Shown: piece by piece, positions 22,685 to 27,885 of the stretch | How positions within the stretch are numbered: the first letter of the stretch is position 1 | How the letters are laid out: each line of letters starts with the position of its first letter | Assembly: GCA_051382335.1 (NCBI GenBank) | Contig: JBBCAX010000374.1 | Coordinates: 1-28,560, forward strand | Source of the DNA: Deltaproteobacteria bacterium TL4 | GTDB lineage: Bacteria; SAR324; NAC60-12 | DNA: 28,560 nucleotides | Direction of reading: 5' to 3' | Notes under the pieces: generated by a model | Database searches by the model: none | Seen by the model: only the letters and a program-made list of their open reading frames with translations | What the model was told of the DNA's origin: nothing | Made by a program: the position numbers and the translations under genes

Positions 22685-23740
22685 ATGTTTTGTTCAAAAT
22701 ATTATGCAAAAAGCAGACGAGGGTTCACGCTTGTTGAACTTGCGATAAGTTTAGGAGTACTTGCTATTTTAGTTGGAACCATTGGTCCAATGGGAGTGAG
22801 TGCGATTTCCCGTAAAAAAGGAACTGATACGTATAACCAACTTCAAAATGTTAATGGAAGTTTGCAAAGGTATTTCAGTGATAAAGGGGTACTTCCTTCT
22901 GACAATGAGGGCTTTTCTGTTTTAGAAGCAGAAGGAGGCTCTGGTCCCTATATATCATCTCATAGCACTTTAGATGCATGGGATCGAGTTTTCCTCTACG
23001 ATCGTATTGATACGCTAAATTTAATCACTGATGCAAAAAATAATAAAGTGGATTATCAGATTCAAAAATTGGCGATAATCGCCTCAAAGGGGGTGAATAA
23101 CGAGCTGGATAGTGCTCCAAGCGGAGGAATCAACGGAACTTGGAATTTAGCTGATATAAAGGATGATATCATCATTCCCTCAGTTATTTTGCAAACTGAA
23201 AGAAATAACAAATATAGTACAGTGAAAAATATCAATGCAGCGATGATGTTAACGGCTTCTGCTAGAATGGAAGAGCTGGAAGCAAAATATGGTTTCGAAG
23301 TTGATGGAGAAAAAGGAGAGAAACAGATCACATTTTTTAATACATTGAGTAGTAATAATGCAAGTAAATATGATGCGTTGCACAATGTTACAGCAACGAT
23401 TTTAAAAGGAAAGAAGGATGGTGAGGGGAATTGGTACTACATGGATCCTAAAACTGGTGAATATAAGGAGGAAGAAATAGCCAATGTTGTTAAAATTGCC
23501 AATCTAAAGAAGGAACGGTTAAAAGAAAAGTGTAGTGTTGCATCTGATCCCAGAGAATGTCCGATAATCTTTATGGAAGTCTATTTCAACATCCAATACC
23601 CACGAGATGTATGGGGTGAACGATTCCTTTGGGATAATGACAATGCTCGTCAAAATTATGAATTTTATAGTAAAGGACCAAACAGGAAAGATAATAAACT
23701 TGCCGATAATTCTGACGATTTCACAGGTCGATGGTATTAG
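22685..23740 (+). CDS. Type IV prepilin/GspG-like pseudopilin 1 with duplicated head domain (start placed at ATG 22685)
   Basis: KSRRG|FTLVE class III signal plus hydrophobic helix. GspG-like GPYI...DAWDRVFLY...SKGVN..DD, and again PRDVWGERFLW...YSKGPNRKD...DD. Confidence 0.88.
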   Translation: MFCSKYYAKSRRGFTLVELAISLGVLAILVGTIGPMGVSAISRKKGTDTYNQLQNVNGSLQRYFSDKGVLPSDNEGFSVLEAEGGSGPYISSHSTLDAWDRVFLYDRIDTLNLITDAKNNKVDYQIQKLAIIASKGVNNELDSAPSGGINGTWNLADIKDDIIIPSVILQTERNNKYSTVKNINAAMMLTASARMEELEAKYGFEVDGEKGEKQITFFNTLSSNNASKYDALHNVTATILKGKKDGEGNWYYMDPKTGEYKEEEIANVVKIANLKKERLKEKCSVASDPRECPIIFMEVYFNIQYPRDVWGERFLWDNDNARQNYEFYSKGPNRKDNKLADNSDDFTGRWY

Positions 23741-23786
23741 TAGCTATTTCGCCTCAACTTAAGGTTGATGCCCTTCAAGAGGTTTT

Positions 23787-24663: not shown

Positions 24664-27600
24664 ATGAAACGATATACATTTTTTTCAAAAATAATAAACA
24701 GTGATGCTGATTCAAATTCAGCCAGACAGCCCTCGAAAAGAGGTGGTTTTTCATTAGGTCTGCTTTTTACCGCGTTAGTGGGAGTGGCTTTAATCGTTGC
24801 TGTGGCGGCTCCGATTTATAACAGTCTCCAAGGTGAAAAATTGTCAGTTCAAAAACAGCTTAATCAGTTGTCCGATGCAATTAGCGAGTATTTTAGAGAC
24901 ACAGGTCACTTACCAGAAACACTGAAGGATTTGTCAACTAAGCCTACAAGTGAAAAGTATTGGTTGGGACCCTATGTGTCAATGTTTCCTGATAAAGTTG
25001 ATAGGGATGCTTGGGGGAAAACATTTATTTATATTAAAGACCCTAAATTGTATGATAACGTCCTATTGGTCCTCAAAAAATACTTTAACCCCAATATGAA
25101 GCGTACTTTTTTGATTCTGTCTTGTGGAGTGGATGGGAAAGTAAATACGGAGAACAGAACAGATGTTAACAAAAAAGCAAGTCACGTTTCAGAGTGCGAT
25201 CCTGATAAGCTGAAGGATGTTTGGTGGCTGGCAAAGAGAATCACTGACGCAAGTAATGAATCCGTAGCAAAAGCTAACATTGATTTCGAAGACAATGATG
25301 AAGGTGTTTGGGGAACGGTTCATCCTGTTTATAACCAGTATTATGAATTAACCGTAGAAAGATTGAAGGCTCTTAACCGTATTCGTGAAGATGCTAATGT
25401 TGGAATTATTGAAATCAATCGCATGAGCGCTGAATATATAGCTCTTGGTAGTCAGCAGGATTATACAAAGGTTACAAATAAAGAAAAACGGGCTACAGCC
25501 ATACCTAGAGCCTTCGCAAGAAAAGGGAAAAAATTGAGTCAATTTTTTCAAAAGGACTTGTTTGGCAGAGATATTTTATGGGTCAACTCTTCAAGCGGAA
25601 ACTTTGATGCTGTTCCGGCACAAGCTGCATCAGGAATTATGTACAGTGTCGGATTCAACCGGGAAGATAATAACAGTCTTGGTGATGATATTCGTTTGTC
25701 CGATTCCTTTATGTCTGAAACGGTAAAAACAGGCTTGCTTGATGTTAAATTGGCATGGGGGCAGTTTGAACCAGGAACCCGATGCGATGGCAGTGGCGTC
25801 ACAGAGATTGTTGATAATAACTCCAAAGTAGGTGGTGTGAGTGCTCGAGAATCATACTATTACTCTCGAGGATATTGGAGGTCCGATGTTTTGGGCGCAA
25901 AAATAAAACCCAATCCAGATAGTAAAGCCGTTGAAACAAGAGCAGGAACAAGTATTTTTAATCCAAGCCGTGAATGGATTTCACTCTGTGTTAAACATGG
26001 TCCGGGCGAGGAATTCGTTGAAAGCATATACATACGCGGAATGGATAAAAGTTGGTATGATTCAGTGAAAACCTGGTTTGGAAATACTGATGGCCTGAAT
26101 ATGACTGAATTTGCTTGTGATGATGGCTATTCAGGAACACATTTCAGGGGTGGATGGCACCTTCAAGGTTGGTCTGCGGCAAAATTGATTTCAGGTGACT
26201 TGGGTTTGATTCGAGCGCATTACTTGGAAAAGTCAACAGTCAAAGATGCAAATAAATTGGAAGACACCTTTCATACACTTTGTGTTACAAAGGGTCCTGA
26301 TCCTTCAGAAACTATAGATGTGGGGCTTTTTGCGCCTAAGGGTTGTGATGGAGTTAGCTGTTTGGCAGGTGGCCTTGGAACTGCGCTTACAAGTCTTTTT
26401 GGTGGTGGTCGGGATAGTATGTCAGCTACGGACAAAATTCAATGTCCAGGTTCCGATATCAACCGAGATCAGGATAGTACAGGAACGGTTCAGGGTGGTA
26501 TTGCGTCACGACCTTTTAGAGCCGGTGAGACTTACTATCAATTTATTGGAGAGTTCAAACATGCATCATTGGGAGATCTCGCTCCAAAAGGTGCAAAAGC
26601 CTATGATCCAGGTTATGTGAATCATGGCACGATCATCTCAGGAACGTGTAATAATGCTCGCAACCCTATGTGTATGGTTAACTCCGATGTTGTTGATTAT
26701 TACTCTTTTGTTTCATTCTGTACACGGCATATTGATCGTTATACCTATGTTAAAACTTTAAGAGAAAACTCATCAATTCCTTATACAGGACAGATCACCG
26801 ATGATGATGATCCCGCAAACCCTGTAACTCATACTTTAGCCAAACCGAATAGTTTTGAATACTATCAACAAGACGTTCAGAAATGGGTTTATCTGAATAA
26901 GTTACTTGGAGCGATCGATGGAGGTTCCGTCAAAGATCTTGACGCATCGTGGTTACGAAGTGTTCAATTTCACTTAAAAGATCTTCATCTCGACTGGTTT
27001 GGACTCTTTTTCAGGGATACTATTGAGATTGCAAATGGAAATAATGAATCAATCTGGGCGCCTGATATTCGAACCGGAGAGAGTGATCAAGGAGTTCATA
27101 TTTTTGGGAAATTTATTCCAATTCAAAGTTGGGACGATTCGTTGGAAGTTGACGCAACCCCTCAGGCATTCGTTGATATTCCGAAAGCAAACGCAAAACC
27201 AAACACTAATGCGTCTATTTTACCCAAGCCTCATATGAAGGTTAAGATTCAGTGTAAAGGATGTAATTTAAGGGGAAACTTCTCGTTGTTTGGTCTCCCT
27301 ATCGGAAAAACGATTAACCAGGCCACCGCATTATATCGTGGCTTTGTCATAGATAAAGTTCAATATACCTGCAATTCGGCAAATGAACTCGATTGTCTCA
27401 GTTTCTGTGTTGAGGATAGTGAGTGTCGAGCCTTCACAGGTCCGAGAAACAATTTTGAAATCGGAGCTGCCCAATATATTGTGACAAACATCGATATTAA
27501 CTTAAATGGAAAAGACTTTGGAGACTGGTGGCCTTACAATGAGCCGGATCTGATCGGAAGTATCTCTTTTGATGGACAGGCAATCAAAGATTATTTGCAC

Positions 27601-27885
27601 AATAGTCATGATGACTATACTTATAGTGAACCAGATTCTGCAGGTATAGGAGGAAAAACCTTTAACATCAGAGCGGGTTCCAGAGCTGTTCTTGATTACT
27701 GGGATGACAATGGAAAAGAAGGTCCAAGTAGTAGTGATAATCGAATTTCAAATGATTACTACGACATAAAAGATGAGTGGCGTAAAAAAGAATTTACGAT
27801 TGAAATCAAGCATACCGTAAAAAACAATAGCGGGCAAACCAGACTTACATTCAAGTGTGTTAAGGAATGTGACTTGCTCCAGTAG
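24664..27885 (+). CDS. Giant Glu5-less prepilin-like protein with two GspG-like heads and a ~720-aa Cys-rich extracellular tail (putative tip adhesin)
   Basis: KRGG|FSLGL plus hydrophobic helix. GHLPETLKDL..YWLGPYV..DAWGKTFIY..LSCGVDG, second copy KDLFGRDILW..YSVGFNRED..GDDI. Long Gly/Asp/Cys/Trp-rich remainder. Start placed at ATG 24664 (TTG 24637 is an alternative). Confidence 0.82.
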   Translation: MKRYTFFSKIINSDADSNSARQPSKRGGFSLGLLFTALVGVALIVAVAAPIYNSLQGEKLSVQKQLNQLSDAISEYFRDTGHLPETLKDLSTKPTSEKYWLGPYVSMFPDKVDRDAWGKTFIYIKDPKLYDNVLLVLKKYFNPNMKRTFLILSCGVDGKVNTENRTDVNKKASHVSECDPDKLKDVWWLAKRITDASNESVAKANIDFEDNDEGVWGTVHPVYNQYYELTVERLKALNRIREDANVGIIEINRMSAEYIALGSQQDYTKVTNKEKRATAIPRAFARKGKKLSQFFQKDLFGRDILWVNSSSGNFDAVPAQAASGIMYSVGFNREDNNSLGDDIRLSDSFMSETVKTGLLDVKLAWGQFEPGTRCDGSGVTEIVDNNSKVGGVSARESYYYSRGYWRSDVLGAKIKPNPDSKAVETRAGTSIFNPSREWISLCVKHGPGEEFVESIYIRGMDKSWYDSVKTWFGNTDGLNMTEFACDDGYSGTHFRGGWHLQGWSAAKLISGDLGLIRAHYLEKSTVKDANKLEDTFHTLCVTKGPDPSETIDVGLFAPKGCDGVSCLAGGLGTALTSLFGGGRDSMSATDKIQCPGSDINRDQDSTGTVQGGIASRPFRAGETYYQFIGEFKHASLGDLAPKGAKAYDPGYVNHGTIISGTCNNARNPMCMVNSDVVDYYSFVSFCTRHIDRYTYVKTLRENSSIPYTGQITDDDDPANPVTHTLAKPNSFEYYQQDVQKWVYLNKLLGAIDGGSVKDLDASWLRSVQFHLKDLHLDWFGLFFRDTIEIANGNNESIWAPDIRTGESDQGVHIFGKFIPIQSWDDSLEVDATPQAFVDIPKANAKPNTNASILPKPHMKVKIQCKGCNLRGNFSLFGLPIGKTINQATALYRGFVIDKVQYTCNSANELDCLSFCVEDSECRAFTGPRNNFEIGAAQYIVTNIDINLNGKDFGDWWPYNEPDLIGSISFDGQAIKDYLHNSHDDYTYSEPDSAGIGGKTFNIRAGSRAVLDYWDDNGKEGPSSSDNRISNDYYDIKDEWRKKEFTIEIKHTVKNNSGQTRLTFKCVKECDLLQ

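Follow-up and report, generated by a model that had tools for sequence, protein, structure and literature searches.

Tandem GspG-type heads in a prepilin trio of a SAR324 bacterium: candidate alternative tips of an MSH-like type IV pilus

Introduction

Pilins are treated in print as single-headed proteins, and the one dual-pilin exception that we found is C. difficile PilJ, in which one class III helix is followed by two pilin domains and which a passage of a 2014 review calls the only dual-fold type IV pilin (PMC4471445). The GspG/PulG/EpsG/XcpT proteins of type II secretion systems (T2SS; PF08334, TIGR01710; PDB 5wda, 3g20, 3gn9, 1t92) have a single head of about 140 residues, and a section of PMC13081927 describes the calcium site in their acidic C-terminal loop. 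For the MSH pilus, mshA, E, G, L and M are given as mandatory genes in one part of PMC6668835, and MshQ (about 1200 residues) appears as a large terminal adhesin candidate in an excerpt of bioRxiv 10.64898/2026.02.14.705861. Here we analyse a 28,560-nucleotide stretch of DNA from Deltaproteobacteria bacterium TL4 (SAR324), hereafter the window, in which three neighbouring genes, A, B and C, encode prepilins with tandem GspG-type heads.

This trio would work in the manner of a PilIJK/MshDOPQ tip yet, by the tests run, is no member of GspG, GspK/PilX or the canonical MSH families. Head 1 is like GspG in sequence and fold and head 2 by profile, and the acidic loop is shared; the trio differs from GspG in having two heads and 279–1073 residues, in lying outside the GspG clade and in not standing in a gsp operon. 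The domain plan is that of PilJ, but the heads are GspG-type, the genes form multi-gene cassettes and relatives reach three to five heads; no PilJ-named chain was among the PDB sequence or fold matches of B and head 2. Small Glu5-bearing pilins accompanied by one bulky Glu5-less member are also found in PilIJK/GspIJK and modular pilins (S. sanguinis PilB, PilC; GspK), whereas all trio members are paralogues of the major-pseudopilin type, with two to four genes per cassette, and A, B and C gave no match to a GspI/J/K or PilV/W/X family at E≤0.1 (Pfam, NCBIfam). The MshL-like secretin, the ATPase with a cyclic di-GMP (c-di-GMP) motif and the platform are shared with the Vibrio MSHA pilus; in TL4 the secretin falls under the MshL cut-off and the pilins are GspG-type and lie in several loci. 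C is analogous to MshQ but is itself a prepilin. We consider it somewhat more probable than otherwise that the trio is an alternative minor-pilin/adhesin tip for a c-di-GMP-controlled, retractable MSH-like type IV pilus, rather than a T2SS component.

Results and discussion

Three adjacent genes encode double-headed prepilins

The genes and their parts are as follows, with a slash marking the cleavage-type site.

22685..23740, + strand: gene A, 351 residues from ATG, double-headed prepilin with Glu5 (G13/FTLVE); N_methyl 25.8 bits, T2SSG in two stretches
about 23198–23737, + strand: head 2 of A, holding a long insert
23787..24626, + strand: gene B, 279 residues, double-headed prepilin with Glu5 (G15/FSLME)
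24222..24623, + strand: head 2 of B, with helix 146–167, a low-confidence insert at about 170–240, a DPW motif, strands within 249–259 and an S-x-G-P-D loop
24664..27885, + strand: gene C, 1073 residues from ATG (1082 from TTG 24637), G28/FSLGL without Glu5; two heads, then cargo
25330..25698, + strand: head 2 of C, with helix ELTVERLKALNRI, then DLFG, YSVGFNR and DDI
25711..27882, + strand: cargo of C, about 720 residues, Cys-rich, with three Cys-bounded repeat-like segments and a sub-threshold PAN-like stretch

A preliminary description of this DNA had proposed three co-oriented, tightly spaced prepilin genes with two heads each, and the open reading frames (ORFs), cleavage sites and head-1 and head-2 profiles bear this out. 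A class III signal, consisting of a hydrophilic leader that ends in Gly and about 21 hydrophobic residues after it, is present in A, B and C. Genes A and B are 46 bp apart and B and C 10 bp (37 bp if C is counted from its ATG); the ORF list also offers an upstream TTG for A at 22640, which would lengthen the protein by 15 residues.

The second head is reduced and holds a variable insert

Pfam T2SSG matches head 1 in all three proteins and a second stretch in A only, so the two T2SSG matches per protein that had been expected are found in one of the three and not in B or C. N_methyl likewise exceeds its cut-off only in A, and all three proteins miss the GspG equivalog threshold of TIGR01710 (54.9, 65.7 and 31.4 bits, cut-off 88.85). 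Of the motifs ascribed to both copies, the literal D-x-W-G is broken in three of six heads (DAWD in head 1 of A, DPWK in head 2 of B and DLFG in head 2 of C). In an alignment of 16 small members from five genomes (A1), the second half keeps D-x-W ... W ... FYSxGP invariant, and the S-x-G-x-N/D...DD loop is conserved in both heads.

Profile comparison aligned head 1 with head 2 (P=94.5, E=7.9e-8), and head 2 with 28 single-head GspG-like proteins (P=96.5, E=7.4e-10) over 90 columns that span the helix and the C-terminal motif; with 12 column-shuffled control profiles, 11 gave P≤0.24 and the twelfth gave no alignment. Judged by these profiles, the duplication of the head is beyond chance. Head 2 of C aligns with the family head 2, yet scores just 9 bits on the head-2 hidden Markov model (HMM).

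By sequence, head 1 matches GspG 5wda at E 4e-20 (PDB sequences). An AlphaFold2 model of B (58 sequences; pLDDT 82, pTM 0.76) places a helix at residues 18–69, three strands within 108–144, a second helix at 146–167, the low-confidence insert and two more strands. As modelled, B has the long alpha-1 helix on an antiparallel beta-sheet that marks the type IV pilin superfamily. Foldseek searches with this model returned GspG in all of the top ten rows (prob 1.0, E 3e-3 to 7e-3, about 105–110 columns), with TM scores for head 1 of 0.58–0.68 depending on the target, and no pilin row covers both heads. Of the second copy as first described, its own helix stands, both in the model and in the profile alignment, but its completeness does not: head 2 is a real but reduced head with a variable insert, rather than a full copy.

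Gene C carries a large cargo and lacks Glu5

Neither the missing Glu5 of C nor its cargo of about 720 residues had been part of the preliminary description. The whole protein contains 20 Cys. Its three Cys-bounded repeat-like segments (about 25783–26724) were recognised by eye and resemble segments in the large protein of a second TL4 cassette on contig C114, with which the cargo aligns at E 0.002–0.004 by BLAST; self-BLAST of the cargo detected no internal repeats. The PAN-like stretch (about 27340–27438) is below cut-off at E 0.04–0.09, with E 0.02–0.04 in the counterpart of C in G009, a genome of another genus. No homologue of the cargo beyond that counterpart was found in a word-index protein search, which returned C itself only, or in the ESM Atlas, which gave no usable match. 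The same word-index search with B returned only the window's own proteins; we ascribe these nulls to divergence, because HMMER found many relatives. The ESM Atlas matches of B were GspG-family clusters only.

All seven large prepilin members seen, namely C and its G009 counterpart, the large proteins of cassettes on C114 and C63 with the counterparts of both, and the one in locus L062, lack Glu5, which is kept in 16/16 small members (A1). In large members other than C, LamG lectin-like or fn3 domains were identified (Pfam). In L062, a double-headed gene and a Glu5-less LamG member are followed downstream by alignment-type genes and a secretin fragment. Described tips offer parallels: in the portion of bioRxiv 10.64898/2026.02.14.705861 that deals with PilK-type tip subunits, these are invariably without Glu5 and their predicted place is the most apical one, and modular tip pilins bear variable cargo, including LamG, in a section of 10.1101/2021.01.27.428410. 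We predict that C is a tip-capping adhesin.

TL4 holds further cassettes, with counterparts in another genus

BLAST and HMM searches of the TL4 genome (G000, in which the trio contig is C374), which we compared within a set of 61 genomes, recovered further cassettes.

C114 quartet: one 779-residue gene and three small genes
C63 pair: one small gene and one 1127-residue gene

Each of the three cassettes (3, 4 and 2 genes) holds one large Glu5-less member. In G009, every gene of all three has its counterpart by best BLAST, at 28–42% identity, for which SucA (63%) and SucB (56%) of the same two genomes serve as a yardstick. The sole exception to one-to-one pairing is the G009 counterpart of B, which ties between B and a lone B paralogue on contig C121 (148 vs 147 bits). 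That paralogue (C121:46905–47702, + strand, locus L022) ends right after FYSTGPR, without the final acidic strand, and is possibly decaying.

The synteny search proposed for relatives recovered the trio beside sucAB in G009, in the opposite orientation to that in TL4. On these sequence comparisons the cassettes look like old, fast-evolving, position-specific sets, unlike shuffled modules. Because the counterparts are one-to-one, the cassettes look like alternative rather than swapped tips, and the word swappable, if it means mobile or shuffled, finds no support. Recent horizontal arrival of the trio is not indicated either, its G+C content being 0.37–0.40 against 0.41–0.43 for the neighbours and the sucAB adjacency being found in G009 as well.

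The likely machine is an MshL/MshE-like operon

Among the ORFs and Pfam matches of the window there is neither an ATPase nor a platform nor a secretin gene, in line with the earlier remark that none is adjacent. The proposal of a stand-alone cassette whose machine is encoded elsewhere is supported: the likely machine is an MshL/MshE-like operon on contig C202 of TL4, which comprises a secretin, alignment-type genes, a platform and an ATPase. The best NCBIfam family of the secretin is MshL (TIGR02519; 217.5, cut-off 250.2), the ATPase passes the cut-off for the MshE c-di-GMP motif (NF053729; 63.2 vs 38), and the platform belongs to the GspF/PilC family, under family cut-offs. Three single-headed GspG-like pilins lie 10 kb from the operon (C202:25–27 kb), and two more, of the same operon-type clade, were seen at C167:45163–46366 (- strand), away from any machine. 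The whole genome encodes five T2SSE-family ATPases, three secretins, one prepilin peptidase (C150) and PilT. A PilY1 search gave no match, nor did its controls, and a single query found no MshM-like AAA gene in TL4, although an AAA gene does occur in the L064 operon.

In relatives, double-headed pilins are encoded inside such operons. The gene order in G007 is ABC genes, PilT (459.6 bits, cut-off 319), double-headed pilin, secretin, single-head pilin, ATPase, platform, PilM and two alignment-type genes; G008 has the same order from the double-headed pilin onward. The ABC genes upstream in G007 are, we presume, akin to Myxococcus pilH/I. Across the comparison set, the head-2 profile matches five of the 61 genomes (G000, G007, G008, G009 and G016), and close matches to the C202 secretin (E≤1e-63) occur in exactly these five, whereas 24 other matching genomes have E≥2e-25.

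The trio could instead be a set of accessory pseudopilins of a canonical T2SS, replacing the I/J/K tip so as to recruit or display substrates. Both heads are of GspG type, TL4 has a gspFGHIJ run on contig C71, with the genome's own gspG, and a search of the genome with PF03934 detected no GspK. Contig C71, however, stops directly behind gspJ, and gspK may therefore be missing from the assembly; GspG-like matches with B as query extend to 55 of the 61 genomes, against five for head 2; and the linked machines found are all of MshL-like type, one of them with PilT. When 37 N-terminal domains were placed in a tree, moreover, the canonical GspG clade (100/99) excluded 19/19 double-headed proteins, as did a second clade (98/99) made up of the operon-type single-headed pilins; the tree gave no clear single origin for the 19. 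We regard a T2SS role as improbable, and of the T2SS or type IV pilus machine first envisaged, it is the MSH-like pilus side that we favour.

Multi-headed GspG-type proteins recur in uncultured lineages

Scanning GTDB genomes with a head-2 DNA motif gave 32 loci, titled Zixibacteria (15), Ignavibacteria (9), SAR324 (4), and WOR-3, Deltaproteobacteria, Proteobacteria and Terriglobales (1 each). The motif match lies 230–310 residues into the ORF in 32/32, and 31/32 have a class III start. A secretin that scores best to that of C202, out of three tested, is present in 26/32 loci and an ATPase in 20/32; in five of the six secretin-less loci, less than 3 kb of DNA lies downstream. From metagenomes, a scan recovered 47 loci, for the most part of the same operon type, with the ORF recovered in 46, a secretin in 26 and an ATPase in 17. 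SAR324-titled motif records reach 80–110 bits on the head-1 profile, compared with at most 23 for other motif-bearing proteins.

Among the GTDB loci, 26 within L055–L086 (Zixibacteria, Ignavibacteria, WOR-3 and Terriglobales titles) share a conserved MSH-like operon, far outside Gammaproteobacteria, that consists of a pilin, a double-headed pilin, three alignment-type genes, an MshL-like secretin, AAA, TPR, an ATPase with the c-di-GMP motif and a platform. Its AAA and TPR genes stand in what we take to be the order of mshM and mshN. Head 2 in these loci has an Asp-rich DDDGDG insert that may bind calcium.

HMMER with alignment A1 against 1.84 billion representatives found 50 proteins at E≤1e-30. 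In the best 150 proteins, as counted with the head profiles, 78 have two heads, 20 have three, two have four and one has five, about 15 of the multi-head proteins being the query set or near-copies. Prepilins with three or more GspG-type heads include P0017, P0022, P0023, P0024, P0032 and P0042, some with long acidic inserts.

These proteins also bear on a reading in which nothing is polymerised, the GspG head serving as a periplasmic building block that can be reused, with the prepilin helix as no more than a membrane anchor. Some multi-head proteins have no prepilin start (in 13 of 101 multi-head representatives no class III signal was matched, and some of the 13 are truncated), and for that reason the GspG head is, as far as these sequences tell, also a mobile module. 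In L084 (7242–10121, + strand), P0033 and P0036, a double head and several fn3 domains follow an ordinary signal-like N-terminus, near ABC genes like those of G007; this type is a possible non-pilin tip partner. In TL4 itself, a lipoprotein-like ORF (..MVMITGC) at C388:23116–23721 (- strand; L148:2117–2722) joins a long helix to a single head-2 module, with no prepilin site and no Pfam family above cut-off. That A, B and C are such proteins is nevertheless improbable, given that Gly(-1) and Glu5 are invariant in 16/16 small members and that relatives are encoded within assembly operons.

A tip model for the trio and its weighing

In the reading that we favour, that of alternative tips on an MSH-like pilus, the prepilin peptidase on C150 would cleave A, B and C. 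C would enter first, at the apex, a place assigned to it because without Glu5 it cannot bond to a subunit above; A and B would pack beneath it via their N-terminal helices, and the single-headed pilins of C202 would form the shaft. Extension of the fibre, by way of the MshL-like secretin, would be the work of the c-di-GMP-binding ATPase, and retraction that of PilT. Packing within the fibre would fall to head 1, whereas head 2 would point outward as a spacer or interaction surface, probably stabilised by calcium. The C114 quartet and the C63 pair would supply alternative tips with other cargo. The A-B-C assembly and its capping by C are inferred.

Several observations weigh against this reading. 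The heads are T2SS-type and the genome does have a canonical gspFGHIJ locus; the C202 ATPase scores alike for GspE and PilB (521 vs 517 bits). Two cassettes end with the large gene, but the C114 quartet begins with it. Head 2 is weaker than B as a whole, for which the proposed structural check did return a pilin fold: modelled alone, it has a pLDDT of 65, with GspG in the top 6 of 15 Foldseek rows at a best E of 0.38, and its profile did not find GspG among PDB sequences. The co-occurrence of head 2 with the C202-type secretin is suggestive and not a statistical test, the counts not being independent, as the head-2 profile was built from the five genomes it matched and these are four genera of one family. 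Of the 32 motif loci, 26 are one near-identical operon type, the SAR324 loci are not independent of the motif design, and the motif pattern fails on the window's own A, B and C. Finally, in the DNA retrieved for the minimal systems (G007, G008 and the Zixibacteria-type operons), a single double-headed pilin with Glu5 is present and no partner that lacks Glu5 was seen; the double head is therefore not confined to multi-gene tip cassettes.

The minimal systems lead to a further possibility, in which the Glu5-bearing double-headed pilins are shaft subunits of the same MSH-like machine, either scattered in the manner of PilJ or forming thick two-layered filaments, and only the large member sits at the tip. 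A and B retain Glu5 and the full alpha-1 helix, the minimal operons pair one double-headed with one single-headed pilin, both with Glu5, and proteins with three to five heads exist (23 of the best 150 HMMER proteins); PilJ is incorporated sporadically with its second domain outward, according to a passage of PMC9556784. The cassette positions, on the other hand, keep their identity across two genera, which fits a fixed heteromer, and the single-headed pilins, as a separate operon-tied clade, are simpler shaft candidates. We hold such shaft subunits to be unlikely.

These findings have consequences beyond TL4. Proteins with tandem GspG-type heads make up a broad family, linked to an MSH-like pilus in bacteria other than Gammaproteobacteria, and uncultured lineages repeatedly encode pilins with two to five heads; in such lineages a GspG annotation need not imply a T2SS. 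The Glu5-less cargo carriers are derived from the major-pseudopilin type, while tips are otherwise thought to be built from I/J/K-type pilins; this opens the question of whether a tip can initiate without I/J/K homologues and how multi-headed subunits pass the secretin. No description of tandem GspG-head pilins was found among the papers listed for the literature searched (the top 10–20 of the larger result sets), which did not cover subscription journals and bioRxiv supplements. The undescribed filament type suggested at the outset is possible, and PilJ is a dual-pilin precedent. A bolder version, which we put forward as doubtful, is an undescribed type IV filament branch whose members, from SAR324, Zixibacteria-like and further uncultured lineages, would use the GspG head as a stackable repeat (two to five per helix) on a c-di-GMP-gated, retractile MSH-like machine; the cell would switch tip cassettes made of major-pseudopilin paralogues, with no I/J/K set, and the fibre may be much thicker and multi-layered.

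Genomic surroundings

The trio is flanked on one side by divergent sucA-sucB-lpd genes and on the other, near the contig end, by a convergent desaturase-like fragment; sucA and sucB were named from their own sequences and the lpd type by Pfam. Scans for promoters and for terminators gave numbers in keeping with chance (21 vs 17.0±3.3 expected, and 2 vs 4.4, respectively), and no RNA was listed for the region. Matches of window proteins to LEA_3a, DUF7296 and DNA polymerase II were all sub-threshold and were dismissed. Adjoining the C114 quartet and divergent from it is a MoxR AAA/vWA/TPR operon (C114:51800–59700, - strand), which we take to be Bat-like. A chemotaxis cluster occupies positions 7802–15703 of the window (+ strand), 7 kb from the trio, and encodes a 1217-residue CheA with three Hpt stretches, two CheW stretches and a weak receiver domain, together with CheW, a PAS/HAMP chemoreceptor and a response regulator (Pfam).

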